Assembly: GCA_964519015.1 (NCBI GenBank) | Contig: CAZFHZ010000002.1 | Coordinates: 397 to 64,396 of the forward strand | Length of the DNA stretch: 64,000 nucleotides | From: an uncultured Gemmatimonadota bacterium | GTDB lineage: Bacteria; Blakebacterota; Blakebacteria; Blakebacterales; CAYUVJ01 | Direction: 5' to 3' | Shown here: positions 13,091 to 57,195 of the stretch, one piece after another | Position numbering within the stretch: the first letter of the stretch is position 1 | How the letters are laid out: each line of letters begins with the position of its first letter | Made by a program: the position numbers and the translations under genes | The notes under the pieces: generated by a model | What the model was told of the DNA's origin: nothing | Seen by the model: only the letters and a program-made list of their open reading frames with translations | Database searches by the model: none

Positions 13091-13124
13091 GTGTTCGCTT
13101 CCCTTCCCATTCTCACATTGGAGG

Positions 13125-17684: not shown

Positions 17685-17831
17685 AGCGTTTGTTCGACAC
17701 CACCCGGAGTAATAGACTTGCCCACGTTCCGGTGGTCCGGAACGCGCCTGATCGGCGCCCGTGCCCGGGGACGCCTAGGGGATACAAGACCCCTCACGCC
17801 CCTATTCAACATTCCGTCGAGGACCTGTCCC

Positions 17832-20356: not shown

Positions 20357-20402
20357 CTCGTTCCGGCTCGACCGAGAGAGGCCCCCGCTCCACCGGGGAC
20401 CG

Positions 20403-24649: not shown

Positions 24650-24918
24650 CAGGGACGCTCCTGGCGGTCGGCCAGCCAGCGGACCGTGGGATCGAGTCCC
24701 TCACGGATGCTCGCCCGGGGCCGGTAGCCCAGCAGCCGTCCGTCCCCCTGATGCTCCGCCAGGTTGTCGAGCGTCCCGGTCGAGAGGTTGTCCAGCACCC
24801 TCACCCTGGCCCCTATCCCCAGCAGGGCACTGACCAGGTTGGAACCGATGAAACCCGTCCCCCCGGTGACCAGCACCCGGCGATCCCGCAGGCGCTCCGA
24901 ACCGGCGACCTCGATCAT
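24649..24918 (-). pseudogene. NAD-dependent epimerase/dehydratase with a large in-frame internal deletion (89 aa)
   Basis: N-terminus VLVTGGTGFIGSNLV...VRVLDNLSTG joined directly to the C-terminal RLLGYRPRASIREGL..TVRW; catalytic YxxxK core absent. Confidence 0.8.
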
Positions 24919-27123: not shown

Positions 27124-27321
27124 TCCCGCCCAGTTTGTTCCAACCGGCACCGGGGCGTAAACATCATTCCTTCCGAGCGGACCCGCGGACCCCGGGAGAG
27201 CGGGCTCTCGACAGGGGTAGTCCCCCTTTCTACCTTGTCGGGTGCAGTACCTATCATGATGCTGGATTGAAGCATCCGTCGCACGCTGGCGCCGTCCAGC
27301 TTTGTCGAGGAGCCTGACCGG

Positions 27322-28407
27322 ATGAAGCTCCCTGCCCGGCTCGTCCCGACCGGGGTCGTCTTCCTGCTCGGCAGCGCCTGCGCGGGGGGTGCGCCACCCG
27401 GTACCCTTCCCCCGCCACCGCCGGCCTCCGGCATCTACCTGCCGATCCCGGAATCGGTGCAGACGGCCGCTCCCTGGCAGCGCCCGCCCGCTCCTGAAGC
27501 GAACGCCTCCTTCCTGGCCATCGACAGCGTCCCCTACTACCGGCTCGGACCGAGGGATGAACTGGAACTCACTATCGCGATCGGTGAGACCGAGCGGAGT
27601 TACCCGGTCCGGATCAGCGAGGGGGGAGAAGTCGGACTGCCGGCCGGCCTGGCCACCGGTCGGGTGCGCATCGGGGGACTCGCCCTCCCCCAGGCCGAAG
27701 CGCGTCTCATCGAGGCGCTCGGGCGCACGGTCCGTGACCCGCAGGTCCGCCTGCGCGTGACGGTCTATCGCGGCTCGCCGGTCACTCTGCTCGGGGAGCT
27801 GACCACCCGCGTCGCCACTGGGGAATCGGGCCCCGGTATCTATCCCCTCGAAGGGGCCACCAACCTGCTCGAATTCATCTTCCGGCACGCCGCCTTCACC
27901 GAGCAGAGCGACCTGACCGCCGTGCTCGTGACCGATGCCTCGGGGCGAACCGGCATGTTCGACCTGTCCGCCGTCCTCTACCGGGGGGAGAACGCCCAGA
28001 ACCCGCTCCTCGACCGGGGGGACGTGGTGACCATCCCCTCGCTGATGAGCACCCGCCGTTACGTCTATGTGCTCGGCGAGGTCACCACTCCGGGGCTGAT
28101 GCGGCCGCAGCCAGGCATGACCGTGGTGGACGCGGTCGCACTGGCCGGCGGGCCCAACACCCGGGCCCGCCAGGGGTGGGTTACCGTGGCGCGGGGCCGG
28201 GGGGAGGACACCCAGCTCTTCCGGGTGCCTTACACCCGCATCCTCAGGAAAGGGGAACTGACCGCCAACATGGTCGTACTGCCCGGTGACATCGTCTACG
28301 TGAGCCGCAGCTCGATGGACACCGTGGGCACGTTCTTCCGAGATATCTGGGGGATCCTGCAAACCGGTGTGGTCTTCACCTTCTTCGTCAACCAGGTGAA
28401 ACCCTGA
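27322..28407 (+). CDS. wza: Polysaccharide export lipoprotein (Wza/SLBB family)
   Basis: Lipobox LGSAC; YRLGPRDELEL, IGGLALPQAE..L, DPQV, VYVLGEVTTPG, DAVALAGG, PGDIVYV; C-terminal amphipathic helix. Confidence 0.88.
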   Translation: MKLPARLVPTGVVFLLGSACAGGAPPGTLPPPPPASGIYLPIPESVQTAAPWQRPPAPEANASFLAIDSVPYYRLGPRDELELTIAIGETERSYPVRISEGGEVGLPAGLATGRVRIGGLALPQAEARLIEALGRTVRDPQVRLRVTVYRGSPVTLLGELTTRVATGESGPGIYPLEGATNLLEFIFRHAAFTEQSDLTAVLVTDASGRTGMFDLSAVLYRGENAQNPLLDRGDVVTIPSLMSTRRYVYVLGEVTTPGLMRPQPGMTVVDAVALAGGPNTRARQGWVTVARGRGEDTQLFRVPYTRILRKGELTANMVVLPGDIVYVSRSSMDTVGTFFRDIWGILQTGVVFTFFVNQVKP

Positions 28408-31361
28408 TGCCTCGCTACGAGCTGAACCTGCGCGACTACTACCGGATCGTCCGGCGCCACATCATCGTGATCGCCGCGGTGGCGCTCGGCCTGGGCGGGC
28501 TCTCCTACATGCTGACCGAACAGGTACCCACCTACCGGGCCCGGGCCACCGTGCGGATCCAGCGCGCCAGCGACATCACCAGCTTCATCATGGAGACATT
28601 CTACTGGAGTCCTGAGGACAACATCTCCACCCAGGTCCGGCTCATCAGCAGCCAGCCAGTGCTGCTCCGGGTAGCACAGAAGCTGTACACGCAATTAGGC
28701 GAACTGGAACTGGATACAATCGCAGAGACCCGGCGCTCACTGCTAGATACCCTCAATGTCCTCTCCGGCCAGATCAGCGCCCAGCAGGTGGAGGCCTCGG
28801 GTCTGGTCGATATCATCGCGAGCGTCAAGGATCCGGATCGCACCGGCACGGCTGGGGAGAGGGCCACGAAGCTGGCGAGACACGCAGCCAACGCTTTCAT
28901 GGAGTTCAGTAACGATCAGGCTAAATTCCGGACGAAAGAGGCGGGTGACTTCGTCGAGGGGCAGCTCGGCATCGTGCAAGACCGACTCGCTACGAGTCAG
29001 ACCGACCTCAAGAAATTCCTCGAGGATAACTTAGAAACCGCGAGCGCCGATGTATCCGGCCTCTCCGTCCTGATCGATCGCCAGCGCAACCTGCAGAGCC
29101 GGATCGTACTATTGCAGGAACAGCTGCGCCGCCTCCGGATTGGGGACTTCAACCTCCCTTCCTCCGGATCTTCCGTCGACCCGGCAGCAGTGAGCTACCA
29201 GGTCGAGACCTTCCGGCCGCTCACCGACCTCCTGACCCGCCGGGCGAACCTGCTTATTACCTACACGTCCCAGGCCCCCGCAGTGCGCGCCCTGGAAGCA
29301 CGTATCGAGGAAGTCCGCCGCGAGATCCGCACGACCCTGGAGATGGACCTGACTTCGCTCCAATCCCAGCTTGAATCGATCAACGGAATCCTGCACGACT
29401 ACCCTCAGGAAGAGATCGAGCTGGCCACCCGGCGGAGGGCGGTGGAGCTGAACACCCAACTGGTCGAGCAGCTACAGACGCGTCGGCAGGAGATCCAGAT
29501 CCAGGAGAGCCAGAAATCGGGTGAGGTGACCATCGTCAACTACCCGACCTCGGCCACCTCCGACCAGCAGGAGGGGGGGAAGGGGCTCAAGACGATCGTC
29601 GGGCTGTTGCTCGGGCTCATGCTGGGGGTGTTGCTCGCCTTTCTGCTGGAGTCGATGGACACCTCCATCGGCACCATCGAGGACGTCGAGGAGTACCTGG
29701 AACTGCCCGTGCTGGCGGTCATCCCCCACCTGGGCGTGGACAAGGTGGCGGCCCGGCTGGTCCAGGAGAGCCCGCAGCTCAGGGACGACCCCAACCTGGA
29801 CATGTACGCCCGCCTCATCCCGCAGTACGACCCGAAGTCACCGGCAGCCGAGGCGTACCGCACCCTGCGTACCAACCTGCAGTTCGCCACCGCCGCGGCC
29901 GAGACCGGCGAGGAGACCAAGAACACCTTCGTCTTCACCTCCTCCTCCCTGCAGGAGGGGAAGACCACCACCATCATCAACCTGGCCATCACCATGGCCC
30001 AGGCCGGCAGCCGGGTGCTCCTGATGGGCTGCAACATGCGCCGCCCGACCCTCTACAAGTCGTTCGGGGTGCCGCGGGAGCGCGGCATGACCGACATCCT
30101 GACCGGCCAGCTCAACTGGCGGGACTGCGTCAAGACGGTCACCGACATGATGGTTGGGCCGCTCAGCCTGCAGAGCGTCATGTCGATGCCGGGGCTGGAC
30201 AACCTGCACCTGATCACGGCCGGGGGCATCCCCCCCAACCCCAGCGAACTGCTCAACTCCCACCGCTTCGGAGAGCTGATCGCCGAGGTCCGCAAGGAGT
30301 TCGATTACGTCATCGTGGACTGCCCCCCCATCCTCCCGGTCACCGACGCCGCCGTGGTCGGCCGTCAGGTCGACTGGAGCGTACTCGTCTACCAGGTCGG
30401 GAAGGTGCCGCGGAACGCCCTGCGAAGAGCCCGTACCCACCTGCAGAACGTGGGGGGTCACGTGCTCGGCATCGCCATGAACGACGTGCGGGCCGAGATC
30501 AGCGGCTACTCCCCCTACAGCCAGTACATGACCAAGTACTACGGGGAGGAGGGGAGGGGCCGCAGAACACTGCTCCAGCGGGTCTTCGGTCGGGGCCGCA
30601 AGGGGACGCCGGCAGCCAAGGCAGGAGAGGAGAAGAAGGCCCGCCGGACGCTCCTCCAGATGATGTTCAACCGTTTCCGCAAAGGTGAGTCCGCCCGCCG
30701 GGCGGGGCCGGAGAAACCCGGCCGGATCAAGGCCGACCTGGACCGTTCCTGGATCGGCGTGCCCTACCACGAAGAAGTGGATGAGGGAAAGCCGGACCGC
30801 ACGCAGCTCGCGCGACTCCCCTACTCCCGCCTCACGCCACCGGAGGAGCCCACGCCGAAACCACCCGGGAGCGAGCCCGCGAAGGAGTCCGATCAGCCGG
30901 CTGAGTCCGCTCCCCGCCGGAGCCTGCTCGATCTCATCCCGCTGTGGGCCTGGCTGGTCGCCCTGGTCGTCGTGGTGCTGATCATCGTGCTCAGCCTGCT
31001 CGGCGTCTGGTCGGGCGGCGGCACCGCCGCCGTCCCCACCCCCACCGTCCGCGTGCTGGCCGAGTCCACATCACCACCGGCTCTCCCCGTGTCTGCCTCC
31101 GTGTGGAGCGTGCTGACCGGCTCCTTCCCGACCGAGGCGGAGGCGCACCGGCTCGTCCGCGCGCTCGAGGCGTCGTCGGAACTGACGGCGGCCGGGATCT
31201 GGACCCGCCCCGAAGAGGTCCCCGGGCTCGGCACCTGGTACCGGGTCTGGGTGGGACGCTTCACCGGGAAGGAGGAAGGGGAAGCGGCCGCCGAGCAGGT
31301 GCGGCGCACCGGCCTGACCGCTCTGGCCTTGCTGCGCAGCACCATCGCCCCGCTCCCCTGA
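28407..31361 (+). CDS. wzc: Wzc-like polysaccharide co-polymerase/BY-kinase with extra C-terminal TM and SPOR-like domain
   Basis: ELNLRDY, two TMs flanking a coiled-coil periplasmic domain, AEAYRTLRTNL, Walker A SSSLQEGKTT, Walker B IVDCPP, Tyr cluster GYSPYSQYMTKYY; then a third TM and a SPOR-like VLTGSF...WYRVWVGRF. Confidence 0.9.
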   Translation: MPRYELNLRDYYRIVRRHIIVIAAVALGLGGLSYMLTEQVPTYRARATVRIQRASDITSFIMETFYWSPEDNISTQVRLISSQPVLLRVAQKLYTQLGELELDTIAETRRSLLDTLNVLSGQISAQQVEASGLVDIIASVKDPDRTGTAGERATKLARHAANAFMEFSNDQAKFRTKEAGDFVEGQLGIVQDRLATSQTDLKKFLEDNLETASADVSGLSVLIDRQRNLQSRIVLLQEQLRRLRIGDFNLPSSGSSVDPAAVSYQVETFRPLTDLLTRRANLLITYTSQAPAVRALEARIEEVRREIRTTLEMDLTSLQSQLESINGILHDYPQEEIELATRRRAVELNTQLVEQLQTRRQEIQIQESQKSGEVTIVNYPTSATSDQQEGGKGLKTIVGLLLGLMLGVLLAFLLESMDTSIGTIEDVEEYLELPVLAVIPHLGVDKVAARLVQESPQLRDDPNLDMYARLIPQYDPKSPAAEAYRTLRTNLQFATAAAETGEETKNTFVFTSSSLQEGKTTTIINLAITMAQAGSRVLLMGCNMRRPTLYKSFGVPRERGMTDILTGQLNWRDCVKTVTDMMVGPLSLQSVMSMPGLDNLHLITAGGIPPNPSELLNSHRFGELIAEVRKEFDYVIVDCPPILPVTDAAVVGRQVDWSVLVYQVGKVPRNALRRARTHLQNVGGHVLGIAMNDVRAEISGYSPYSQYMTKYYGEEGRGRRTLLQRVFGRGRKGTPAAKAGEEKKARRTLLQMMFNRFRKGESARRAGPEKPGRIKADLDRSWIGVPYHEEVDEGKPDRTQLARLPYSRLTPPEEPTPKPPGSEPAKESDQPAESAPRRSLLDLIPLWAWLVALVVVVLIIVLSLLGVWSGGGTAAVPTPTVRVLAESTSPPALPVSASVWSVLTGSFPTEAEAHRLVRALEASSELTAAGIWTRPEEVPGLGTWYRVWVGRFTGKEEGEAAAEQVRRTGLTALALLRSTIAPLP

Positions 31362-31368
31362 ACGCCCG

Positions 31369-32805
31369 ATGGCCAGGCTGGAACCGGGCGAACAGACGCT
31401 CAAGGTCATCATTTTCCTGATCGTGGGCGTCATCTGCGTCTTCGTCGCCACCGTCGTCGCGCAGTCCAGCAACCTGGTCGCCCTGGGCGTCACCTTCGGC
31501 ATCATCATCTTCGCGATCGCCTTCCTCTATCCCGAGGCGGGTCTCTACATCCTCCTGCTCTCCATGCTGCTCAGTCCCGAGATCATCGTCGGTGGTCTGG
31601 GCGCAGGAGCCTCGGCCAGCCGCGGAGTCACCCTGCGCCTCGATGACTTCCTGCTCCTGCTGCTGGCCGCCACCTGGCTCGCGCGGGGAGCGATCTACAA
31701 GGAGCTGGGGGTCTTCCTCTCCAGCCCGCTCAACCGGCCGATCGCCATCTACCTGGCCATCGCCACCGTCTCCACCCTGATCGGGATGCTCTTCGATCGG
31801 GTCCGCCCCATGCTGGGCACCCTCTATGTCCTCAAGTACGCCGAGTACTTCATCGTCTACTTCGCGACCCTGAACTTCATCACCACCAAGCAGCAGATCC
31901 GGCGCCTGACCATAGTCGCCATCCTGACCGCGGTGGCGGTGGCCTTCTTCGCCATCGCCCAGATCCCGCGGGGGGTCCGCGTCTCCGCTCCCTTCGAGGG
32001 CACGACGGGCGAGCCGAACACCCTGGGGGGGTATCTGATCCTCCTCGCGTCCATCCTGGCCGGACTCATGCTCACCGCACCCAGCCTGCGCCAGGGGATG
32101 CGCTACGTCACCGGCATCATGCTGCTCGGGGTCCCCTTCATCTTCACGCTCTCCCGGGCCTCCTATCTGGCCGCCCTGGCGGTCGCACCGGTCCTGATCT
32201 ACTTCTCCCGCCGCAAGATCATCGCCGGTTTCTCCATAGTGACCATCTTCCTGATCATGGTCCTGATCGCTCCGACCTCGGTGGCCGAGCGGATCCGCTA
32301 CACCTTCGGCGGTCAGGGGGTGCGCAGCGACCAGGTCGTCATCGGGAGCATCCGTCTCGACACTTCGACCTCGGCCCGTCTCGCCTCCTACCAGGAGGTC
32401 CTGCGCGACTTCCCCCGTGAACCGGTGATCGGCTACGGCGTCACCGGCTATAGTTTCGTGGACGGCCAGTACATGCGGGTGCTCATCGAGACCGGCCTGG
32501 TCGGTCTGGCCGCTTTCCTCTGGCTCCTGGTCGCTCTGGTCCGGCAGGGGCTGGCTTCGTTCCGGAGTGCGACCGACGAGTGGGAGCGGGGGCTGGCCAT
32601 CGGCTACCTGGCGGGTCTGGCCGGGCTGATCCTGCACGCCCTCGGGAGCAATACGTTCATCATCGTGCGGATCATGGAACCGTTCTGGTTCTTCACCGGG
32701 GTTGTGACCCTCCTTCATCTCTTCAACACCGGTGCTCACACTGAGGAGTTGCCGGTACCGAAGCAGAAGGAGTGGACGCGTTTCTCCGGACTCCTGCGCC
32801 CCTGA
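31369..32805 (+). CDS. O-antigen ligase/polymerase family protein (Wzy/WaaL-like)
   Basis: Multi-TM; EPNTLGGYL, FTLSRASY, P.IGYG, GQYMRVLIETGLVGL. Confidence 0.85.
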   Translation: MARLEPGEQTLKVIIFLIVGVICVFVATVVAQSSNLVALGVTFGIIIFAIAFLYPEAGLYILLLSMLLSPEIIVGGLGAGASASRGVTLRLDDFLLLLLAATWLARGAIYKELGVFLSSPLNRPIAIYLAIATVSTLIGMLFDRVRPMLGTLYVLKYAEYFIVYFATLNFITTKQQIRRLTIVAILTAVAVAFFAIAQIPRGVRVSAPFEGTTGEPNTLGGYLILLASILAGLMLTAPSLRQGMRYVTGIMLLGVPFIFTLSRASYLAALAVAPVLIYFSRRKIIAGFSIVTIFLIMVLIAPTSVAERIRYTFGGQGVRSDQVVIGSIRLDTSTSARLASYQEVLRDFPREPVIGYGVTGYSFVDGQYMRVLIETGLVGLAAFLWLLVALVRQGLASFRSATDEWERGLAIGYLAGLAGLILHALGSNTFIIVRIMEPFWFFTGVVTLLHLFNTGAHTEELPVPKQKEWTRFSGLLRP

Positions 32806-32813
32806 GGTCGCCG

Positions 32814-33335
32814 ATGGAACCATCCGGACAGCTCAGACTGAACCTGGGTAGTGGGGCCCGTCCGCTCGAGGGGTATGTCAACGTCGACCTGCGGGCCATG
32901 CCCGGGGTCGACGTGATCCACGACCTGGACGTCTATCCCTGGCCCTGGGCGGATGATTCGGTCGACCGGATCGAGATGCACCAGGTCCTGGAGCACCTCG
33001 GCGATCACAACCGGGCCATGCGGGAGATCCATCGGATCCTGAAGCCAGGTGGGACCGCCTACCTCTCCGTGCCCCACTTCACATGGCAGTACGCCTTCCA
33101 CGATCCCACCCACCGGTCGTTCTGGGGCTATCAGACGTTCTTCTACTATGTCAACCGGGGTGGGTACTTCGATTTCCGGTTCGCTTCGGTGCAGGTCCGT
33201 CTGGAGTTCGGGAAGGGCCGGGCCTTCTACAACCGCCTGATCGAGCCGATCGCCAACCGCTGGCCGTACCTCTATGAGTCAACACCCCTGCGGGTCTTCC
33301 CGGCCATGAAGGTCCATGCGTGGTTGACCAAGTGA
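32814..33335 (+). CDS. Small class I SAM-dependent methyltransferase
   Basis: LNLGSG, GYVNVD, HDLDVYPWPWADDSVD, VLEHL, EIHRILKPGG, DPTH. Confidence 0.88.
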   Translation: MEPSGQLRLNLGSGARPLEGYVNVDLRAMPGVDVIHDLDVYPWPWADDSVDRIEMHQVLEHLGDHNRAMREIHRILKPGGTAYLSVPHFTWQYAFHDPTHRSFWGYQTFFYYVNRGGYFDFRFASVQVRLEFGKGRAFYNRLIEPIANRWPYLYESTPLRVFPAMKVHAWLTK

Positions 33336-34381
33336 TCCCGCCCTCCGAACCCCACTCGGAACCTACCCTGGTGCTGGCCCTGGCCGGCATCGGCGACCTC
33401 CTGCTGGCCTCCCCGGCCATACGACGTCTGGAAGGGCACCATGGCGCCGGGCAGCTGCGGCTGGCCGTCGTCCCCCGGGCAACGGGCCTGCTCCCGCTGC
33501 TCGGCCTGGACTGCCGGATCCTCACCCTCCCGCTCAACCAGGTACGGCTGCCCGCTCCCCTCCGGCACGGTTCGGCCCGCCGCCGACTCGCGGCCTTCCT
33601 TGAGGAGGTGCGGGGAGAGGATATCGCCCGGGTGATCAGTCTGCACGAGATCGGCTCGCTGCGGGGATTGGTCAGCATGCACCTGCTGCTGCGCGGGATC
33701 GGGGCCCGAGAGACCCTCGGCCGGGGTTACCGCTCCACCACCCTCCCCTTCCGGACGGCCCTCCCTGAGACCACCCTGGCCGGCCTTCACAACGTCATCC
33801 GCTACCACCGGGTGGCCGACCTGGCCGGCGCTCCCGGTGAACACGCCGCGCCCCGGTTGACGCCGCCGGCGCTCCCCGACGGTCTGCCCGGACTTCCCGA
33901 GCCCCTGCTCTGTCTCAACCCCGGGGCCAACCGGGATGAGAAGCGCTGGCCGCCGGAGCACCTGATCGTGACCGGACACCGGTTGAAGGAGCGGTTCGCC
34001 AGCCTGGCCGTGCTGGGCGGACCCGACGAGGCGGCTGAGAGCACCCGCATCGCCGAGGCGATCGGACCGCCCGCCGTCTCACTGGCGGGACGCGTGGACC
34101 TCATGGGGCTGGCCGCCGTGCTCGGCCGGGCGGAGGTCGTGGTGACCAGCAACTCCGGACCGATGCACCTGGCGGCGGCCCTGGGTACCCGGGTGGTGGC
34201 CATCTTCGGGAACCTGCCCACCGACACCCTCCATCCCTACCTCCCGGCCGAGCGTTTCCGGGTACTTTCCAGCGCAGATACCCAACGGTCAGCCGCCCGG
34301 CGGCGGCAGCTGGCCGCTTCGATGCGCGCGGTGACTACCGACGCCGTGGTCGCCGCCGTGGACGAACTGACCGGGGTCTGA
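33320..34381 (+). CDS. Glycosyltransferase family 9 (heptosyltransferase-like)
   Basis: AGIGDLLLASP, LNPGA...KRWP, LAGRVDLMGLAAVL, VTSNSGPMHLAAALGT. Confidence 0.88.
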   Translation: MVDQVIPPSEPHSEPTLVLALAGIGDLLLASPAIRRLEGHHGAGQLRLAVVPRATGLLPLLGLDCRILTLPLNQVRLPAPLRHGSARRRLAAFLEEVRGEDIARVISLHEIGSLRGLVSMHLLLRGIGARETLGRGYRSTTLPFRTALPETTLAGLHNVIRYHRVADLAGAPGEHAAPRLTPPALPDGLPGLPEPLLCLNPGANRDEKRWPPEHLIVTGHRLKERFASLAVLGGPDEAAESTRIAEAIGPPAVSLAGRVDLMGLAAVLGRAEVVVTSNSGPMHLAAALGTRVVAIFGNLPTDTLHPYLPAERFRVLSSADTQRSAARRRQLAASMRAVTTDAVVAAVDELTGV

Positions 34382-34382
34382 G

Positions 34383-35564: not shown

Positions 35565-35634
35565 TGTCATCGTCCGGCGCAATCTTTGTTTTTGAAGGGT
35601 CGTGTAAGCCGGTCCAGCTTCACCCTATGGGAGC

Positions 35635-36447
35635 ATGAGCATGTACCTGGATTTCTGGGGTCTTGAGCGCATGCCGTTCAAGAACACACCCGACCCCGAA
35701 TTCTATTTCCACTCCCCGCAGCACGAAGAGACGCTCACCCGCATGCTCTTCTGCGTGCAGAACGACATGGGCGCGGCGGTCGTCACGGGCGTCTTCGGCT
35801 GCGGCAAGACGCTGCTCATCCACCTGCTCCGCACCCGGCTGGAACGGAGTAACTACCAGTTCGTGATGGTCTCCAACCCCCAGCTGGATGACGTCGAGCT
35901 GCTCCGCATGATCCTCATCAAGATGGGCCTCTCGGTGGTGCCGCACGCCAAGGCCGACGTGGTCAGCCGCCTGGAGGAACACCTGCTCAACAACCAGCGT
36001 GACGGCCGCCAGACCCTCCTGATCATCGACGAAGCGCACATCATCGAGCGACGGGAGACGTTCGAGGAGATCAGGCTGCTCCTCAACTACCAGAGCGAAG
36101 GGCGCTCCCTCCTCAGTCTCTTCCTGGTAGGGCAGCCCGAACTGAGCCTCAAGGTGGACCTCAACAAGCCGCTGGCGCAGCGGGTGGCGATGCGGGCCCA
36201 CCTGGGGCCCTTCACCCTCGCGGACACGACGGCCTACGTACGGCATCGTCTCAAGACCGGCGGTTGTGAGCGGGAGATCCTGACCGAGAAGGCGTACGAA
36301 CTGGTGCACGACCTGAGCGCGGGCATCCCCCGGCGGATCAACAACATCTGCAACCTGGCCCTCCTCCTGGGCGCCTCGCGCGGACAGGAGCGGGTCGATG
36401 AGATGATCGTCTACGAAGTCTCCCGCACCCTGGAGGGGGAGTACTGA
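35635..36447 (+). CDS. ExeA/GspA-like AAA ATPase (ATPase domain only)
   Basis: MYLDFWGL..PF..TPDP.F, Walker A GVFGCGKT, Walker B LLIIDEAH, LVGQPEL, GIPRRINNIC; 270 aa, no TM or peptidoglycan-binding tail. Confidence 0.92.
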   Translation: MSMYLDFWGLERMPFKNTPDPEFYFHSPQHEETLTRMLFCVQNDMGAAVVTGVFGCGKTLLIHLLRTRLERSNYQFVMVSNPQLDDVELLRMILIKMGLSVVPHAKADVVSRLEEHLLNNQRDGRQTLLIIDEAHIIERRETFEEIRLLLNYQSEGRSLLSLFLVGQPELSLKVDLNKPLAQRVAMRAHLGPFTLADTTAYVRHRLKTGGCEREILTEKAYELVHDLSAGIPRRINNICNLALLLGASRGQERVDEMIVYEVSRTLEGEY

Positions 36448-36452
36448 ACCGG

Positions 36453-37907
36453 TTGATGCGGATGCGCTATCTCCCGCTGGTCACCATCCTCCTGCTGGGT
36501 CCTTCCGTCGCTGCCGCAACCGTTCCCCCCGACACTACCCTGGCCGTACTCCTGCACAGCCACGCCCTCTTCGACACCTACGGTTCCGAGGGGCCGGTCC
36601 GGCTGCAGCAGGCCGCCCGGGAGGCGGGGATCGGGGCGGTCGTGCTCACCGAGCAACTGGTCGCCGACTGGACCTGGGCTCCTCCCCTCCTGCGGCTCTT
36701 CGGCGGCGCCCGCCTGCGTCGGGTGTCGGTGAGCAGCTACGGAATCGAGCGCTACTTCCGGGAAGTCACCGAGGCCGACCGGCAGGTGCCGGAAGTGATC
36801 CTGATCGCCGGTGTCGAGGCCGCGCCCTACTACCGCTGGAGCGGTGCCCCCTGGTCGGGTTCGCTCACCATGTGGGACTGGCAGCGCAACCTGCTCGTCC
36901 TCGGTCTCCCGGAGCCTTCGGACTACGAGCACCTCCCGGTGGTGGGCCTGCGGAGCCGGCTGATCGCCTCGCCACGCGACCTGCCCTGGCTCGTGCTGGT
37001 GGTGGCGACCGGCTTCGCCTTCCTGGTCGCACTCAACCGTCTCCGGGTCCTCCCCACCCTGCTCGCCCTCACCCTGTTCGGTCTCCTGATCTGGTCGGGC
37101 CCCCCCCCACCCGCCCCCTTCTCCCCCTACGGACCCGACCCCGGCGTGCGTCCCTGGCAGACCTTCATCGACAGCGTGCGGGCCCGGGGTGGACTGGCGA
37201 TGTGGACGCAGGTGGAGGCGGTGGACGACAGCCGTCCGCTCCGGGGATGGGTTCACATCCACACCGACCCTCACCCCCAGGTGCTCCTGGATACCTGGGA
37301 TTATCAGATGCTCGGAGTGATCTACCCTTCCTCCTCGTCGGCCCAGGAGCCCGGACGTGAGTGGGACCAGGCCCTGCTCGCCTATCTGGCCGGCCAGCGG
37401 GCCGAGCCCGTCTGGGGGTGGGGGGAGTCGGCCCTCCACTACCCCTCGCAGGTCACCGGCGGTGCCAGTGGGAAACGGGTGGACGAGGTACTCAGTTTCG
37501 TCCGGACCCCTTCCGCCTCCCCCCGGGACATTTTGGCCGCGCTGGCCGCTGGGCATGGCTGGTCGGCACGCTCGGCCGTAGCGCCGGGAAGGCTCGAGCT
37601 GGCAGGATTCGCGGCGGTCCGGGGTGGGCAATCGGCCGGCAGTGGGGAGTGGCTGGAGGGGACGGGACCGCTGCGGGTCGAAGCGGCCTGGCGGTTCGAA
37701 GGACCCGATCCCCCGCTGGTGCGTGCCCGCCTGGTGAGGGACGGCCGGGTGGTGGTCGAACGGTCCGGCCGTGGAGCGATGGGACTGGACTGGGTGGAGC
37801 CGGTCGGAGCCGCCGGTGAGCAGCACTTTTTCCGGCTCGAGGTGGACAGCCAGGCCTACCGGTTGTTGACCAATCCAGTGTTCGTTCGTTTCGGGGAACG
37901 CCGATGA
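36453..37907 (+). CDS. Exported PHP-like (amidohydrolase-fold) protein
   Basis: Signal peptide; LHSH, GIGAVVLTEQ, LIAGVE matching the layout of PHP motifs; internal TM hairpin; C-terminal beta-domain ending LLTNPVF. Confidence 0.6.
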   Translation: MMRMRYLPLVTILLLGPSVAAATVPPDTTLAVLLHSHALFDTYGSEGPVRLQQAAREAGIGAVVLTEQLVADWTWAPPLLRLFGGARLRRVSVSSYGIERYFREVTEADRQVPEVILIAGVEAAPYYRWSGAPWSGSLTMWDWQRNLLVLGLPEPSDYEHLPVVGLRSRLIASPRDLPWLVLVVATGFAFLVALNRLRVLPTLLALTLFGLLIWSGPPPPAPFSPYGPDPGVRPWQTFIDSVRARGGLAMWTQVEAVDDSRPLRGWVHIHTDPHPQVLLDTWDYQMLGVIYPSSSSAQEPGREWDQALLAYLAGQRAEPVWGWGESALHYPSQVTGGASGKRVDEVLSFVRTPSASPRDILAALAAGHGWSARSAVAPGRLELAGFAAVRGGQSAGSGEWLEGTGPLRVEAAWRFEGPDPPLVRARLVRDGRVVVERSGRGAMGLDWVEPVGAAGEQHFFRLEVDSQAYRLLTNPVFVRFGERR

Positions 37908-38605
37908 TCCTCGCTGTACACCAGCCGCAGTACTTACCCTGGTCGGGCTACCTGGACAAGATCGATCGGGCGGACCGTTTCGTGCTGCTCGATACCGTGC
38001 AGTTCAAGAAGGGGGAGTGGCAGAACCGTAACCGCATCAAGACCGCCGCCGGCTGGCAGTGGCTCACCGTACCCATCCTGCACGACCATGGCCAGGCCAT
38101 CCGCGAGGTCCGGATCGATCCGGCGCGGGACACCTGGGGCCGCAAACACCAGGAAGCCCTCCGGACCAACTACGCGGCCACGCCGTACTACGACTGGGTG
38201 CGGGCGGCCCTCGACCCGGTCTGGGAGGGGAAGTGGGAATGGCTGGCCCCCCTCAACCGGGCCACGGTGGAGGCTCTGACCGGACTGCTGGGCATCACCA
38301 CTCCGATCTGTCCAGCCTCGGAACTGGGAGAGACCCCCGAGCAACCCGACGAGCGCCTCATCGAGCTCTGCCGCCGGCTGGGCGCCGACACCTACCTGGC
38401 TGGCGCGGGGGGTGGTGCCTATATGGAACTCGATCGCTGGGAGAAGGCGGGCATCCGGGTCGAGGTACAGCGTTTCATCCACCCCGAGTATGCGCAGCCT
38501 TTCGGCGACTTCCTTCCCGCCATGTCGGCCGTGGACCTACTATGCAACTGCGGGCCCGGGGCCCTGGCACTGCTGCGCAGCGCCAACGGGCGCCCGGCCG
38601 GCTGA
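37904..38605 (+). CDS. WbqC-family protein
   Basis: MILAVHQPQYLPW.GY.DKI, DTVQF.K..WQNRNRI, LTVPI, YLAGAGG..Y, MSAVDLLCN.GP. Confidence 0.93.
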   Translation: MILAVHQPQYLPWSGYLDKIDRADRFVLLDTVQFKKGEWQNRNRIKTAAGWQWLTVPILHDHGQAIREVRIDPARDTWGRKHQEALRTNYAATPYYDWVRAALDPVWEGKWEWLAPLNRATVEALTGLLGITTPICPASELGETPEQPDERLIELCRRLGADTYLAGAGGGAYMELDRWEKAGIRVEVQRFIHPEYAQPFGDFLPAMSAVDLLCNCGPGALALLRSANGRPAG

Positions 38606-38618
38606 GAGGGGAGTCCCC

Positions 38619-39254
38619 ATGAACGTCCCGGACGAGCGGATCGATATCCTGGCCATCGGGTCCCACCCTGATGACATCGAGTACGGCTGCGGCGGGACCC
38701 TCATCAAGTACACCGACGCGGGACATCGGGTATTCCTCTATGTGGCCACACAGGGATCGTTCGGGGGCGAGCCGGGGATCCGCCGGCAGGAGATGGAGGA
38801 ATCCGCCCGGCTCATGGGGATCGAAGAACTCATCTGGGGGGACTACACCGACACCCGGATCCCCCTCTCCCAGGAAGTCATCGAGGAGATGGAGGGCATC
38901 ATCCGCCGGGTCCGGCCCCGCTTCATCTTCACCCACTGGCATGACGACACCCATCAGGACCACCGGCATCTGACGGCCTGTACCCTGTCGGCCACCCGCT
39001 ACATCCCGAACTTCCTCCTCTACGAGGGACCCACTTCCCAGAACTTCAACGCCAACGTCTTCGTGGACATCACCGCCGTGCTGAAGCGCAAGATGGGCCT
39101 GCTGGAAGCCCACGCCTCCCAGATGACCAAGACCCACATCGAGGAGACCTCGATCCTGGACATGGCCCGGAGCGCCGCGACCTTCCGCGGTATCCAGGCC
39201 CGCGTGCGTTATGCCGAGGGTTTCGCCAGCCAGCGCCTGCTGATCAATGTCTGA
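38619..39254 (+). CDS. PIG-L family deacetylase
   Basis: IGSHPDDIEYGCGGTL, R.QEM, THWHDDTHQDH, HASQ; ATG at 38619. Confidence 0.93.
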   Translation: MNVPDERIDILAIGSHPDDIEYGCGGTLIKYTDAGHRVFLYVATQGSFGGEPGIRRQEMEESARLMGIEELIWGDYTDTRIPLSQEVIEEMEGIIRRVRPRFIFTHWHDDTHQDHRHLTACTLSATRYIPNFLLYEGPTSQNFNANVFVDITAVLKRKMGLLEAHASQMTKTHIEETSILDMARSAATFRGIQARVRYAEGFASQRLLINV

Positions 39255-40305
39255 GCCCATCCCCCACTCGCGTCCGACCCTGGGTGAGGCCGAGGAAGCC
39301 GCTCTGCTGCGCGTGGTGCGCAGCGGCCAGCTCGCCCAGGGCCCGGAGGTCGCGGCCCTGGAACACGAGGCCGCCCCGCTGCTCGGGCACCTGGACGGGG
39401 TGGCCTGCGGATCGGGCAGCCAGGCCCTGCTGCTCGCCCTGAGCACGCTCGGTCTGGGGGCCGGCCGGCGGGTGGCCCTGCCCGCGTTCACCTGTTCGGC
39501 CGTGCTGCACGCCGTCCAGTGGGCCGGGGCCGAGCCCGTGCTGCTCGACAACGCCCCGGAAGGGATCGCACCGGGGGTGGCGGAACTGGCTGCGGCCGGC
39601 CCCATCGAGGGGGTAGTGCTGGTCCACCCCTGGGGCTATCCGCTCGAGCTGTCACCTTGGCGGGAGGTAACCGTCCCAATCATCGAGGACTGCGCCGGCA
39701 GTGTGGGGGCTTCCCGGGAGGGGGTACCGGTCGGCGCCACCGGGGATGCCGCCATCCTCTCCTTCTACGCGACCAAGATGCTCTGTGCCGGAGAGGGGGG
39801 ACTGCTGGCCGCCCCCGATCCCGTCCTGTTGGAGCGGGCACGCGACCGGCGCGACTACGATGGCCGGTCGGAGTGGGCGATGCGTTTCAATTTCAAACTG
39901 AGCGACCTGCAGGCCGCCGTGGCGCGCGTGCAGGTGGCCCGGCTCCCCTCGTTCCTCGAACGCCGCCGCCGGCTGGCCGCACGATACGACCAGGAGGTCC
40001 CCGGCCTCGGTCTGACCCCGGTCGCCGCCGGCCCGGGGGCGGACCCCTCGTTCTTCCGCTACCTCTGCTGGGCCCGCGGGGACATCACGGAACTGCTGGC
40101 CCACTGCGAAGAACGCGGGGTACACTGCCGGCGACCAGTGCCGGTCACCCTGGATGTGCTGCTGGGGACGGGCCGCCGGCCACACGTCCGGGAGGCCTTC
40201 CACCGTCTGATCAGCCTGCCCCTCTACCCCTCGCTGACCGAGGAGGAGCAGCAGCGCGTGCTGGAGGTGCTGGCTGGGGGCCCGGTCCCGGGAGGGATGG
40301 TGTGA
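39247..40305 (+). CDS. DegT/DnrJ/EryC1/StrS aminotransferase
   Basis: SGSQAL, IIEDCA, PLP lysine motif SFYATKML..GEGG, FNFKLSDLQAA, SLPLYPSL. Confidence 0.93.
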   Translation: MSEPIPHSRPTLGEAEEAALLRVVRSGQLAQGPEVAALEHEAAPLLGHLDGVACGSGSQALLLALSTLGLGAGRRVALPAFTCSAVLHAVQWAGAEPVLLDNAPEGIAPGVAELAAAGPIEGVVLVHPWGYPLELSPWREVTVPIIEDCAGSVGASREGVPVGATGDAAILSFYATKMLCAGEGGLLAAPDPVLLERARDRRDYDGRSEWAMRFNFKLSDLQAAVARVQVARLPSFLERRRRLAARYDQEVPGLGLTPVAAGPGADPSFFRYLCWARGDITELLAHCEERGVHCRRPVPVTLDVLLGTGRRPHVREAFHRLISLPLYPSLTEEEQQRVLEVLAGGPVPGGMV

Positions 40306-41465
40306 AGCGGATCACCCTCATCGCGACCCCCGCCGCGCTCCTGCTCACGCTCCTCTTCCTCTGGCTCCGGCAGCGGGTGGAGACTCCCGACTGGTTGAAC
40401 TGGGGCGGTCCCGGTCTGCTCTCCGCTCTGGTGACCTTGGGACTGGTCCCACTCCTGCAGGCACTCGCCGGCCGCATCGGACTGCTCGACCACCCTGACG
40501 CCCGCAAACAGCACCAGGGAGCGGTCCCGCTGGTCGGAGGCCTGGCCATCTACGGCGGGATGCTGGTCACGGTCCTGGTCTACCCGGTCTACCTGCTGAA
40601 CCCGGCGGTACGTGCCATCCTGCTGGCCGGTGGTCTCCTGCTGGTCATCGGGGTCATGGACGACCTGTTCGAGGTCCAAGCGTCGGTCAAGCTGCTCTTC
40701 CAGGTGTCGGCCGTGGCGGTGGTCATGAGCGGCGGTGTGATGGTGACTTTCCTGCCGGCCGTCTGGTGGGGAGTCGGGCTGGAAGTCCTTATCACCGCGA
40801 TCTGGCTCATCGGGGTGACCAACGCGGTCAACTTCCTGGACGGGGTGGACGGACTGGCGACCTCGCTCACCATCATCGCCGCCCTCGCCTTCGGGCTGGT
40901 GGCCGTCCAGACGAGCCAGCCTTTCTTCCTGCTGCTCTGTGCCGCCCTGGCGGGGGCGTGTTTGGGTTTCCTCCCCTATAATTTCCGCCCCCGGCCGGCT
41001 TCCGCCTTCCTGGGGGATGCCGGAGCCACCCTGCTCGGGTTCCTGCTGGCCTCGATCGCGATCGTCGGGGAGTGGGGAGGATCGGGCGGGATGACCCTCG
41101 ATCTCATCGTACCACTGCTCATCCTGGGAGTGCCCATCTTCGACACCACCTTCATCACCATCACCCGGATCGCGGACGGTCGGATCCGCACCTTTCGGGA
41201 GTGGCTGGAGTACACCGGCCGGGATCACTTCCACCACCGGCTGCTCAAGCTGGGCTTGAACCGCTTCGATGCGGTGGGTTTCATCTGCCTGCTCAGCGCG
41301 ATCCTGGCCCTGAGCGCCATCATCCTGAGGGGCGCCAGCGGCGCTTTGCCCATCCTGTCCCTGCTTCAGGGTGTTATAATCCTCTCCATCATCGGACGCT
41401 TCATGCTCTTCATCGAACATCGCGACCGCGTCAAGGAAGGGAGTCGGAATGGTTCGGCTGGCTGA
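40302..41465 (+). CDS. WecA/MraY-family undecaprenyl-phosphate sugar-1-phosphate transferase
   Basis: DHPDARKQH..PLVGG, GVMDD, TNAVNFLDGVDGL, YNF.P...FLGDAG, DHFHHRL; GTG at 40302. Confidence 0.93.
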   Translation: MKRITLIATPAALLLTLLFLWLRQRVETPDWLNWGGPGLLSALVTLGLVPLLQALAGRIGLLDHPDARKQHQGAVPLVGGLAIYGGMLVTVLVYPVYLLNPAVRAILLAGGLLLVIGVMDDLFEVQASVKLLFQVSAVAVVMSGGVMVTFLPAVWWGVGLEVLITAIWLIGVTNAVNFLDGVDGLATSLTIIAALAFGLVAVQTSQPFFLLLCAALAGACLGFLPYNFRPRPASAFLGDAGATLLGFLLASIAIVGEWGGSGGMTLDLIVPLLILGVPIFDTTFITITRIADGRIRTFREWLEYTGRDHFHHRLLKLGLNRFDAVGFICLLSAILALSAIILRGASGALPILSLLQGVIILSIIGRFMLFIEHRDRVKEGSRNGSAG

Positions 41466-43044
41466 TGTCCTACCGGGGGGTAAGGGACCTCAGAAGCCAG
41501 GTACCCCCGAGACACCCACGTCGGAGAGCCCGCCCGAAGTGCTCATCCTGACGGCCCGTGAGGAGATCGTGGACCTGGTCCGAAGTGCCGTTGAAGAACG
41601 CGGCTGGCGTCTTCACCGGGCCGGGTCGGCGGAGGAAGTGCTGGAACGTCTCCGCCTGCTCACCCGGGTACGGGTAGTGCTGGACGGACATCATGATGGG
41701 ACCCCGAGTCTGATCGACCATTCCGCGCTCGATTCCCGGACCTGGGTTGTCCTGGTCGACGAGACCTCGATGAAGGAAGCGTCGTTCCAGGCCTTACCGG
41801 AAACCCGCAAGCTCGGTCCGACGGTCGATCCCCAGGAATTGTTCGCGCGGCTCCAGCCGGCCACCGCGGCCTCTGCCCGGACCGAATCCGGCCGGGTGTT
41901 CACCCGACCGGTCCCGGTGCCCCCGCCGGTCACCGAGCCGGTCGCTCCTCCGGTCGCGAAGACTCCTCCCTCGCCGAGTCCGCCTCCGGTGGCGCAACCC
42001 TCACCGAAGCCGGCCGCTCCTGCCCCCCCGCGGACGCTCCAGCCCCAGGCGCCGCTCCGGGCCCCGGTTCCCCCTCCCACCCCGACGGCCACCCCCCGGG
42101 TCGCCCCGGCGACCACCCCCGCACCGGTCAGGAGCCGGGGACCCTACGAAGTCACCGTCGCCGCGATCGCCACATTCCTCAAGGGGCATCGCAACCGGTC
42201 CAATCCACCCCTCAACGAAATCGCCGAGGCAGTTACCGGACTCATCAAGGGTGCCCGCACTTCCAACGAAGACTTCCTCAAGATGATTGAGCCCCGGCCG
42301 GAGTTCGAGGAGGTCGACCTCTTCCTGGCTTATCACCAGGTCAACACTACCATCCTGGTCAACAAGATCGGCCGCGGACGGCACCTCCCCGACCAGGAGC
42401 TCTTCGAATTGTCCCTGGCGGCGGCCATTCACGATGTGGGTATGACCCGGTTACCTGAGGGACTGATCGCCCGGCCGGGGAAACTCGACCCGTCAGGCTA
42501 CTCACAGATCAAGCAGCACCCGGCTTACGGCCGCGACATCGTAAAGGCGTACGCAGACGCCTACCCCTGGCTGCCCCAGGTGGTCTACCAGGAACATGAG
42601 CGCTTCGACGGATCGGGCTATCCGGAAGGACTCAAGGGGGAGGCGATCCACAAGTACGCCCAGATCATCGGACTGGCCGATACCTACGAGGCCCTGACCC
42701 ACCCGCGTACGTTCCGGGAGAGCATGATCCCATTCAACGTGCTCCAGCAGCTCATCCGGCTTGGCGGGAGGCTCTTCCCCAGTGACCTGGTCAAGGCGTT
42801 CATCCAGGAGATCAGCGTCTTCCCTCTGGGTTCCGATGTCCGTCTCAGCACCGGCGAGGTGGGCACCGTCGTGGAGATCAACCAGGGCTATCCCCTGCGC
42901 CCATTGGTCCAGATCCACTTCTCTTCGACCGGAGTCCCGCTGGGAGAGGAGGAGCGGCGGGTGGATCTGAGACAGGAACCGATGATCTATATCACCGGTC
43001 CGGTTGATGCGCGGGAGAAGAAGCCGGGCGCAAGTATCGGTTGA
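41449..43044 (+). CDS. HD-GYP domain protein with receiver-like N-terminus and Pro-rich linker
   Basis: AIHDVGM, IKQHP, EHERFDGSGYPEGLKG, LADTYEALTHPR.FR, VFPLGS.VRLSTGE.G.VV. Confidence 0.9.
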   Translation: MVRLADVLPGGKGPQKPGTPETPTSESPPEVLILTAREEIVDLVRSAVEERGWRLHRAGSAEEVLERLRLLTRVRVVLDGHHDGTPSLIDHSALDSRTWVVLVDETSMKEASFQALPETRKLGPTVDPQELFARLQPATAASARTESGRVFTRPVPVPPPVTEPVAPPVAKTPPSPSPPPVAQPSPKPAAPAPPRTLQPQAPLRAPVPPPTPTATPRVAPATTPAPVRSRGPYEVTVAAIATFLKGHRNRSNPPLNEIAEAVTGLIKGARTSNEDFLKMIEPRPEFEEVDLFLAYHQVNTTILVNKIGRGRHLPDQELFELSLAAAIHDVGMTRLPEGLIARPGKLDPSGYSQIKQHPAYGRDIVKAYADAYPWLPQVVYQEHERFDGSGYPEGLKGEAIHKYAQIIGLADTYEALTHPRTFRESMIPFNVLQQLIRLGGRLFPSDLVKAFIQEISVFPLGSDVRLSTGEVGTVVEINQGYPLRPLVQIHFSSTGVPLGEEERRVDLRQEPMIYITGPVDAREKKPGASIG

Positions 43045-43071: not shown

Positions 43072-43098
43072 AAAAAGAGCGGCTCGCGCCGCCCTTTT
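43072..43098. terminator. Bidirectional rho-independent terminator between convergent genes
   Basis: AAAAAGAGCGG-CTCGCG-CCGCCCTTTT, with A/T tracts on both sides. Confidence 0.65.
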
Positions 43099-43122
43099 CG
43101 CTGCTCCCTTCCGCTGGAACTG

Positions 43123-57191: not shown

Positions 57192-57195
57192 CCGC

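Follow-up and report, generated by a model that had tools for sequence, protein, structure and literature searches.

The 64,000-bp stretch of DNA analyzed here (the window; contig CAZFHZ010000002.1 of an uncultured Gemmatimonadota bacterium) includes, between nucleotides 27322 and 43044, a run of 13 tightly packed genes, all on the + strand. Together with genes located upstream, this region is probably a complete Wzx/Wzy-dependent polysaccharide locus, for an exopolysaccharide (EPS) or a capsule, composed of two separately conserved blocks and equipped with a control pair formed by an ATPase and an HD-GYP protein. Block 1 consists of Wza-Wzc-Wzy and glycosyltransferases, and Block 2 of the ATPase, a PHP-like protein, WbqC, PIG-L, DegT, WecA and the HD-GYP protein. 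The novelty lies in the ATPase/HD-GYP pair, in the unannotated and predicted periplasmic protein family to which the PHP-like protein belongs, and in a Wzc that ends in a SPOR domain. Even with the recent cryo-EM structures, it is not yet settled how Wza-Wzc machines are put together, positioned across the peptidoglycan and activated. An AAA+ ATPase/HD-GYP pair that is found in roughly ten phyla and is kin to secretin and pilus ATPases is a testable candidate for a control or assembly step, and offers a direct link to cyclic-dinucleotide signalling.

Pfam and NCBIfam searches bore out the gene list of an original prediction made from the sequence alone, although that list had missed a methyltransferase gene and the reach of the locus upstream to about nucleotide 20244. 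The first gene of the run (27322-28407) encodes a Wza-type outer-membrane polysaccharide export (OPX) protein with Poly_export and SLBB domains and a lipoprotein-like N-terminus. It is followed by wzc (28407-31361), whose 984-amino acid product is a class 2a polysaccharide co-polymerase (PCP-2a) and bacterial tyrosine kinase (BY-kinase) with Wzz, GNVR and AAA_31 matches and an extra C-terminal tail. Next come genes for a Wzy_C family membrane protein that is a polymerase or a ligase (31369-32805), the missed small class I S-adenosylmethionine-dependent methyltransferase (32814-33335), a GT9 glycosyltransferase (33320-34381) and a GT4 glycosyltransferase (34383-35564; matched in both databases). 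The ATPase-only AAA+ protein of the ExeA/MshM family (35635-36447, 270 amino acids, AAA_22) precedes the PHP-like protein (36453-37907, 483/484 amino acids), which has no Pfam match and is predicted to be a periplasm-facing, membrane-tethered, hydrolase-like protein. The run is completed by genes for a WbqC-family protein (37904-38605; PF08889, 234 bits; a sequence search against the PDB gave nothing meaningful), a PIG-L/LmbE-family de-N-acetylase (38619-39254), a DegT/DnrJ/EryC1 sugar aminotransferase (39247-40305), a WecA-type polyprenyl-phosphate N-acetylhexosamine (HexNAc)-1-phosphate transferase (40302-41465; Glycos_transf_4) and the HD-GYP protein (41449-43044; HD_5, 87.5 bits, motifs intact). 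The OPX protein and the PCP-2a protein with its kinase domain and tyrosine cluster agree with a group 1-like Wzx/Wzy system.

The packing of the genes is consistent with a single operon. From wza to the ATPase gene the successive junctions are a 1-nt overlap, 7-nt and 8-nt gaps, a 16-nt overlap, a 1-nt gap and a 70-nt gap, and from the ATPase gene onwards a 5-nt gap, a 4-nt overlap, a 13-nt gap and overlaps of 8, 4 and 17 nt. Eleven of the 12 junctions are thus overlaps of at most 17 nt or gaps of at most 13 nt, the sole exception being the 70 nt directly before the ATPase gene; the last overlap is the one between the wecA stop and the start of the HD-GYP gene that had been predicted. All the operon genes have valid start codons, several of them preceded by purine-rich stretches, and a high G+C content in third positions (about 68% G+C for the window overall). 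The 198-bp intergenic region upstream of wza (27124-27321), which separates it from a divergent GT4 gene, is likely a divergent promoter region. A terminator-like hairpin followed by a T-run (43079-43101, + strand) lies 35 nt past the HD-GYP stop, a position that is suggestive only, and a promoter and terminator scan of the region gave no more sites than expected by chance.

Conservation of the module was assessed by scanning genomes, one per species, with an alignment of the ATPase. The 80 best loci, which carry at least a dozen phylum-level labels and are the best matches rather than a random sample of the family, were retained (loci are cited below by number, preceded by L). Open reading frames (ORFs) were called in each locus and matched to the proteins of the window, and the remaining neighbours were clustered, the cluster names being confirmed by Pfam. 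In 58 of the 80 genomes, from about ten phyla, the ATPase gene lies in a polysaccharide locus. The loci split into 41 with a PHP-like/WbqC/PIG-L/WecA cassette, 17 with only HD-GYP and/or Wzc/Wza, 12 with pilus and secretin genes, and ten that were left unclassed. Within 10 kb of the ATPase in 66 non-pilus loci we counted WecA in 33, PIG-L in 29, WbqC in 25, the PHP-like protein in 23, HD-GYP in 21, Wzc in 20, DegT in 17 and Wza in 15, numbers that are lowered by contigs ending near the gene. Directly next to the ATPase one most often finds WbqC on the upstream side (15 loci) and PIG-L on the downstream side (19 loci), not Wzc, and the HD-GYP gene adjoins it in 17 loci. Three gene orders recur: GT4-PHP-WbqC-ATPase-PIGL-WecA; WbqC-PIGL-DegT-WecA-HD-ATPase-Wza-Wzc-Wzy (L071, L075, L081); and ATPase-HD-Wzc (L019, L025). 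ATPase, PHP-like protein, HD-GYP and Wzc are found together in the Gemmatimonadota loci and in L053 (Planctomycetales), L058 (Omnitrophota), L071 (Desulfobacterales) and L083 (Methylomirabilales). In two loci the ATPase and a complete HD-GYP domain are fused in a single protein (L058:12934-14763, 609 amino acids, and L063:1602-3590, 662 amino acids); L058 has in addition a separate ATPase gene beside the cassette. Judged by these neighbourhoods, the ATPase, the HD-GYP protein and the PHP-like protein are a conserved module across phyla. The original prediction had singled out four accessory parts; these three recur beyond Gemmatimonadota, and the fourth, the SPOR-tailed Wzc, is confined to that lineage.

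Other features were noted in these loci. Two tandem ATPase paralogues are present in L029, L034, L041, L045 and L054, with HD-GYP genes on both sides in L045 and L054. About 15 of the ATPase/HD-GYP loci include a radical SAM/SPASM protein (for example L055:4546-5565 and L053:2681-3781), accompanied in about five loci by an NTP_transf_5 nucleotidyltransferase, and L011 (15392-15685) and L012 have a PqqD-like gene; the set looks like a peptide-maturation cassette. In the Elusimicrobia loci L008-L010 (12580-20795) a cassette with no Wza/Wzc nearby is followed by a Phenol_MetA_deg outer-membrane barrel, another small PHP protein, one ABC ATPase, a pair of FtsX/MacB permeases and a protein resembling TP_0789, an arrangement that may represent a different export route.

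The ATPase of the window has intact Walker A (GVFGCGKT, residues 52-59) and Walker B (LLIIDEAH, residues 128-135) motifs. ExeA/GspA belongs to type II secretion and MshM to the mannose-sensitive haemagglutinin (MSHA) pilus. The window protein shares with ExeA/GspA the AAA_22 domain and both Walker motifs; it consists of that domain alone, with neither the transmembrane (TM) segment nor the peptidoglycan-binding domain, and no GspB or secretin partner is encoded in the window. An exact look-up of its sequence gave no entry, and a word-index search returned more than 3,400 homologues. Among the closest of these, at 74-97% identity, is an "ExeA family protein [Gemmatimonadota bacterium]", and a second tier at about 50% identity is made of ATPase-only proteins of 264-268 amino acids from Elusimicrobiota, Omnitrophota and other phyla. 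In the genome scan the nearest loci, both labelled "uncultured Gemmatimonadota", encode ATPases with 86% and 75% identity. The alignment shows no variation in Walker A, Walker B or a GIPRRIN motif. The best match among solved structures is MuB (E 1.8e-5), and no close structure was found. The 12 pilus loci are of the type IV pilus/MSHA-like kind: the ATPase gene is flanked by one for a T2SSE+MshEN ATPase and one for a T2SSF platform protein, and genes for a secretin, PilM/N, PilO and an MshEN-PilZ protein are found alongside. These pilus-type ATPases are 37-45% identical to that of the window, and in a rough, midpoint-rooted neighbour-joining tree they form two clades nested among the polysaccharide-type proteins.

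Its partner, the HD-GYP protein (41449-43044), has a receiver-like N-terminal region that gives no Response_reg match, a long proline-rich linker, the HD-GYP domain and a conserved C-terminal region. The motifs HDVG (residues 328-331) and HERFDGSGYP (383-392) are intact. Among solved structures its nearest relatives are PmGH (4mcw), PA4781 (4r8z) and the V-cGAP3 enzyme (5z7c), which is specific for cyclic GMP-AMP (cGAMP), with E values of 1e-18 to 1e-20. The window protein is like them in that the HD and HHExxDGxGYP motifs are intact, and differs in its receiver-like N-terminus, which is limited to the Gemmatimonadota versions, in the proline-rich linker, and in the region after the HD-GYP domain, which is common to the partners in other phyla. 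A role in cyclic-dinucleotide hydrolysis is therefore a well-founded prediction.

From gene and domain content, conservation, synteny, fusions and predicted topology we infer the following biochemical roles. WecA would prime undecaprenyl phosphate with HexNAc-1-phosphate, PIG-L, DegT, WbqC and the methyltransferases would tailor amino sugars, and the GT4 and GT9 enzymes would extend the repeat unit, which the Wzx-like protein encoded upstream would flip, Wzy would polymerise, and Wzc and Wza would export. The cytoplasmic ATPase and the HD-GYP phosphodiesterase would be a conserved control or assembly pair that most likely couples the state of cyclic di-GMP (c-di-GMP) to the assembly or activity of an inner-membrane platform, that is Wzc and/or initiation by WecA. 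A parallel case is seen in the pilus loci, where sister ATPases are found beside c-di-GMP-binding MshE-type ATPases and secretins. The 483-amino acid PHP-like protein may be a periplasmic enzyme, resembling TIM-barrel hydrolases, or a binder, that acts on the lipid-linked or nascent glycan, and the third TM helix and SPOR domain of Wzc would be a lineage-specific addition tying the Wzc oligomer to peptidoglycan.

Several observations weigh against this scheme. Most cassette-type loci have no Wza/Wzc within 10 kb, and therefore the client of the ATPase may be the initiation and tailoring block and not the exporter. One locus (L006) has the order PHP-WbqC-PIGL-DegT-WecA with no ATPase or HD-GYP nearby, and in another (L094) a SPOR-tailed Wzc is not accompanied by an ATPase in the following 5.7 kb. 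The histidines typical of PHP proteins are not kept throughout the PHP-like family (H34 in 19 of 24 sequences, H36 in 11 and H328 in eight). Control by c-di-GMP had been part of the original prediction; the two ATPase::HD-GYP fusions support a link to a cyclic dinucleotide, which may be c-di-GMP or cGAMP, a cGAMP-specific enzyme being among the closest solved relatives. As to the client of the ATPase, its position next to WbqC, PIG-L and WecA speaks for initiation and tailoring, and its position next to HD-GYP, Wza and Wzc, together with its kinship to secretin-system ATPases, for the exporter. A wider proposal, which we put forward only as a rather doubtful speculation, is that ATPase-only ExeA/MshM proteins with HD-GYP proteins make up a widespread and so far unrecognised cyclic-dinucleotide-gated assembly or activation factor, whose clients would be Wza/Wzc exporters and a dedicated amino-sugar glycan pathway of PHP-like/WbqC/PIG-L/WecA, the wall-binding half being supplied in Gemmatimonadota by the SPOR domain on Wzc. 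If this were true, OPX channels, like secretins, would have their own AAA+ helper.

The Wzc protein has the expected landmarks, with TM helices at residues 19-36 and 396-414, Walker A at 513-521 and the tyrosine cluster GYSPYSQYMTKYYGEE at 700-715 (nucleotides 30504-30551). Another 269 amino acids follow this cluster: a basic amphipathic motif that occurs twice (RRTLLQ..F.R.RKG, 30561-30686), an acidic and proline-rich linker, a third TM helix (residues 843-868, 30933-31010) and a SPOR domain (PF05036, residues 898-972, 31098-31322) that scores 31.5 bits against a gathering cut-off of 21 (E 2.3e-7). The added TM and SPOR tail that had been proposed for this protein is thus confirmed. The SPOR domain is predicted to be periplasmic because the helix that precedes it has its arginines on the N-terminal, cytoplasmic side. 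The basic motif is present as a single copy in L001, L007 and L013, and its duplication in the window protein is a recent internal one of 27 amino acids. The TM+SPOR architecture is kept in nine related Wzc proteins (L001, L007, L013, L014 and L093-L097), which are all the related Wzc retrieved. L093-L097 were obtained by a metagenome scan; a word-index search with the Wzc tail had given one fragment, low-complexity sequence probably swamping the prefilter. Since the PHP-like partner drops to about 45-50% identity within this set while the architecture of the tail is kept, the tail appears to be under selection in the lineage.

Among the Wzc compared, only those of the Gemmatimonadota lineage have the TM+SPOR tail. 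Fifteen of the 17 Wzc partners of ATPase homologues in other phyla end 0-58 amino acids past the alignment of the kinase domain; of the remaining two, L083 stops at a contig end inside the kinase domain and L089 has a truncated extension of 119 amino acids. The ATPase is retained in all 17 loci. Three Desulfobacterota Wzc, L071 (9432-11738), L089 (5923-8439) and L090 (3148-5385), have a similar basic motif and, at the C-terminus, a third TM helix that no SPOR domain follows, and those of L065 and L075, from the same phylum, end in the basic motif with no third TM helix. These forms suggest that the tail arose in steps, the SPOR domain coming last. In the literature searched, "SPOR domain" and "Wzc" occurred together in one paper only, an unrelated genome report; both "SPOR" and "peptidoglycan" are absent from a BY-kinase review (PMC9800525), and "peptidoglycan" is absent from a Wza-Wzc structure paper. 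The SPOR-tailed Wzc is, by its domain composition, the only case we found of a BY-kinase co-polymerase with its own predicted peptidoglycan-binding domain. Elsewhere in the window, on the - strand (55962-58730), there is a cluster encoding FtsE, an FtsX with an extracellular domain and an M23 peptidase. Systems of the FtsEX/M23 type activate septal amidases and so give rise to denuded glycan, the ligand of SPOR domains.

The combination of an ATPase lacking a wall-binding domain and a Wzc that has gained one had led to the idea of a split ExeA, in which the cytoplasmic ATPase and the third TM helix and SPOR domain of Wzc rebuild an ExeA-like device that, controlled by c-di-GMP, would open the Wza-Wzc channel or set it in place across the wall. 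We consider this unlikely. The ATPase is homologous over its full length to the ATPase domain of ExeA/MshM and has sister clades in secretin-containing pilus loci; the cytoplasmic tail motifs RTLLQRV, WIDVPY and LPYSR, conserved in the nine Gemmatimonadota-type Wzc that have the TM helix and SPOR domain, could dock a partner; and L097 is another locus in which a SPOR-tailed Wzc and the ATPase occur together. On the other hand, outside the lineage nearly all the Wzc end soon after the kinase domain and the ATPase is still kept, the ATPase is flanked mostly by WbqC and PIG-L with many loci lacking Wzc within 10 kb, and in L002/L015 and L094 the ATPase block does not adjoin the one with the SPOR-tailed Wzc. 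As a general mechanism the split ExeA is not supported, because the SPOR tail is confined to the Gemmatimonadota lineage.

A second alternative, which seems improbable to us, is that this is an ordinary member of the XrtA/PEP-CTERM EPS systems, with the exosortase and the PEP-CTERM proteins encoded elsewhere in the genome and the ATPase being a TIGR03015 protein. For Wza, Wzc, GT4 and Wzy the best specific NCBIfam hits are indeed to XrtA-system models, TIGR03015 ("XrtA/PEP-CTERM system-associated ATPase") is the only curated family touched by the window ATPase, and a canonical XrtA locus with a similar gene order is known (PMC3684757). However, all these scores are far below the curated cut-offs: 202 against 324.5 for TIGR03015, 75 against 180 for TIGR03027 (Wza), 120 against 231 for TIGR03018 (kinase), 77 against 279 for TIGR03007 and 175 against 409 for TIGR03088. 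Pilus-linked ATPases score 191-210 bits on TIGR03015 and cassette-linked ones from other phyla 193-236; because the pilus-linked proteins score alike, the match is generic for ATPase-only ExeA homologues and shows no membership. A Pfam scan of the whole window found no type II secretion system genes, exosortase or Wzb of the low-molecular-weight protein tyrosine phosphatase (LMW-PTP) type, as had been claimed from the sequence. Nor does an exosortase appear among the 25 Pfam families listed for 37 polytopic membrane ORFs within 10 kb of the ATPase in the non-pilus loci, which include ABC-2 permeases, PMT_2, flippases and acyltransferases; a further twelve families with one member each lay outside this list, which leaves room for an isolated case.

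Further genes of the locus lie upstream of the operon, on both strands. They encode a candidate Wzx-like flippase of the MOP family (20244-21899, +), an assignment that rests on weak MurJ/MatE matches in Pfam, a Polysacc_synt flippase being present in the same neighbourhood of relatives; a glycosyltransferase-like protein with a Glyco_trans_1_2 match (21896-22912, +); a class I methyltransferase (22612-23610, +), whose start is uncertain, the domain beginning at about residue 125 of the ORF; a GT9 glycosyltransferase (23549-24649, -); and two GT4 glycosyltransferases (24915-26069, -, and 26050-27123, -), all three identified by Pfam, the last of which is divergent from wza and is found as the same 357-amino acid gene in L001. 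The product might be a lipopolysaccharide O-antigen or an O-antigen capsule and not a free EPS, with the Wzy_C protein acting as a WaaL-type ligase and GT9 enzymes acting on the core. We give this a low probability. The Wzy_C match, which is to a family of O-antigen ligases as well and does not separate polymerase from ligase, the two GT9 enzymes (the heptosyltransferase family) and the WecA-type initiator are typical of O-antigen loci, and the Elusimicrobiota cassettes without Wza/Wzc nearby lie beside MacB/FtsX-type ABC genes. Against it, the presence of Wza together with a full BY-kinase Wzc is the mark of exporters for group 1/4 capsules or EPS, and no lipid A or core genes are present in the window; the EPS and O-antigen readings are, moreover, not mutually exclusive.

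The PHP-like protein (36453-37907) starts with a Sec-like signal peptide (residues 1-21, MRMRYLPLVTILLLGPSVAAA), followed by an HSH motif at residues 34-36. An AlphaFold2 model built with the family alignment (pLDDT 89, pTM 0.87) has a beta/alpha barrel-like N-domain (about 27-160 and 232-345), two long hydrophobic helices inserted in the barrel at residues 173-214, which make up the hairpin located at 178-213, and a C-terminal beta-sandwich from about residue 345. Because of the Sec-like N-terminus and the arginine-rich loop of the hairpin, which would be cytoplasmic, the enzyme-like domain is predicted to face the periplasm while being held in the membrane. Nearly all of 25 relatives from other phyla share the signal or TM segment and the hairpin. 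Of the exported PHP-like protein that had been predicted, export to the periplasmic side is upheld; the protein appears to be membrane-tethered and not simply exported, and its assignment to PHP is weak. Pfam gives no match for it and weak or faint PHP matches for some relatives. The family profile matches PDB 3e38, a two-domain PHP-like phosphoesterase, with an E value of 3.9e-4, and a Foldseek search with the N-domain has PHP domains at the top of its PDB hits (Pol III alpha, histidinol phosphatase and EndoQ), at E 0.045-0.25 and a TM-score of about 0.2, which is not significant. With the full-length model only the C-terminal sandwich is matched, by RhoGDI, UNC119 and the C-terminal domain of Wzt (TM-score about 0.4). 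A prenyl-binding role for the sandwich was considered and dropped: it also aligns weakly with the C-terminal part of the CehA/McbA model (NF038032, E 7e-4), and 3e38, a two-domain protein of that kind, was matched by the family profile, so that the sandwich is probably no special feature. With these two-domain metallohydrolases the protein has in common an HxH strand at the N-terminus, a TIM-barrel that is distorted, and a beta-sandwich at the C-terminus with the final motif ...NP(V/I)F(V/I). The similarity is marginal, however, and the window protein differs in its signal peptide and inserted two-helix membrane hairpin, and in that it is not the histidine ligands that are conserved in the family but E121, E254, D304 and several tryptophans and tyrosines. 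In 24 sequences drawn from several phyla, E121, E254, D304, Y126, W128, W250, W303, R460 and N473-P474 are invariant or nearly so. The window protein, in which HSH is kept, may be a metal-dependent hydrolase; the carboxylate and aromatic pattern of the family fits a glycan-binding or glycan-cleaving barrel equally well.

A word-index search had returned 17 relatives and made this family look very rare, a view overturned by an exhaustive hidden Markov model search, which gave 1553 matches, nearly all of 460-530 amino acids, and 533 clusters at 50% identity with E<=1e-30. It is thus a sizeable family for which no Pfam model has been defined, and the membrane hairpin is common to the members examined across phyla. 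Its company of WbqC, PIG-L and WecA is a hint that some step of glycan processing, not yet characterised, takes place at the periplasmic face; in L006 it accompanies these and DegT in the absence of the ATPase and HD-GYP. A distant paralogue with 27-30% identity and no HxH is found among unrelated metabolic genes (L004/L005:10001-11431). CpsB-type phosphatases such as CpsB/YwqE, from Gram-positive capsule loci, are known partners of BY-kinases. That the PHP-like protein is the missing Wzc phosphatase of this type, taking the place of Wzb, is very improbable: there is no LMW-PTP gene in the window, and the weak PHP-like similarity and the N-terminal HSH motif would fit, but it was rejected because the catalytic domain is predicted to be periplasmic and the tyrosine cluster of Wzc cytoplasmic, and in addition the protein accompanies WbqC/PIG-L/WecA even where no Wzc is nearby and the histidine cluster is lost in many relatives.

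The remainder of the window contains housekeeping genes, for example those for DnaK, MetRS, FtsEX, SurA-like PPIases and ProDH. On the - strand (11849-17684) a MacB-type permease gene is followed by three consecutive genes for HlyD-family adaptors, which is unusual, flanked by a GT2 gene (10414-11832) and a gamma-glutamyltranspeptidase gene (17718-19544). DNA nearly identical to nucleotides 35000-38600 is present in several salt-marsh metagenomes (up to 82% of the sampled words) and, more weakly, in marine-sediment metagenomes, which indicates that the habitat of the bacterium is salt marsh or marine sediment. Convergent with the operon is a gene for a tetratricopeptide repeat (TPR) protein (43123-44037, -), syntenic in all the Gemmatimonadota relatives, whose membership in the system is uncertain. 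The pilus-type loci also hold a TPR gene, and in MSHA loci the ExeA-like MshM is paired with the TPR protein MshN.

No name for the module was found in the curated families or the literature searched, NCBIfam has no system-specific names for the Desulfobacterales versions, and no functional data on it were found in the literature on TIGR03015, WbqC, ExeA with PEP-CTERM, SPOR with Wzc, and MshM. The system had been put forward as undescribed; the module is indeed unnamed in these sources, but its kind is not wholly undescribed, since it parallels the core of the XrtA-type EPS loci. With the export of group 1 capsule and colanic acid by Wza-Wzc-Wzb of the E. coli type (PMC8285477, PMC12881504) the locus has in common an OPX lipoprotein, a PCP-2a protein with two TM helices and a periplasmic domain, a Walker-type kinase with a C-terminal tyrosine cluster, and the Wzx/Wzy logic; it differs in having no Wzb in the window and in the 269 amino acids that Wzc carries past the tyrosine cluster. 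The ATPase is like ExeA/GspA and MshM in its AAA_22 domain with a characteristic N-terminal motif, and its sisters lie between MshE-like and PilC-like genes near a secretin, whereas that of the window is reduced to the domain and stands amid sugar-biosynthesis and Wza/Wzc genes.

The closest parallel is with the core of the XrtA/PEP-CTERM EPS locus (Haft et al. 2006, PMC1569441), for which the gene table of Rubrivivax gelatinosus gives the order wza, chain-length determinant, kinase, exported unknown protein, ATPase, epimerase, deacetylase and FemAB (PMC3684757). Both bring together in one cluster a Wza-type exporter, a chain-length determinant with a tyrosine autokinase, an exported protein, an ATPase-only ExeA homologue of the TIGR03015 family, a sugar de-N-acetylase and a GT4 enzyme. 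The deacetylase is of the PIG-L type here and a polysaccharide deacetylase in the XrtA loci (PMC3684757); WbqC occupies the place of FemAB, the initiator is of the WecA type, the HD-GYP protein is part of the module, and no PrsK/PrsR, PEP-CTERM or exosortase genes were seen. On its gene content we read the module as sister to the XrtA EPS core and independent of a nearby exosortase.

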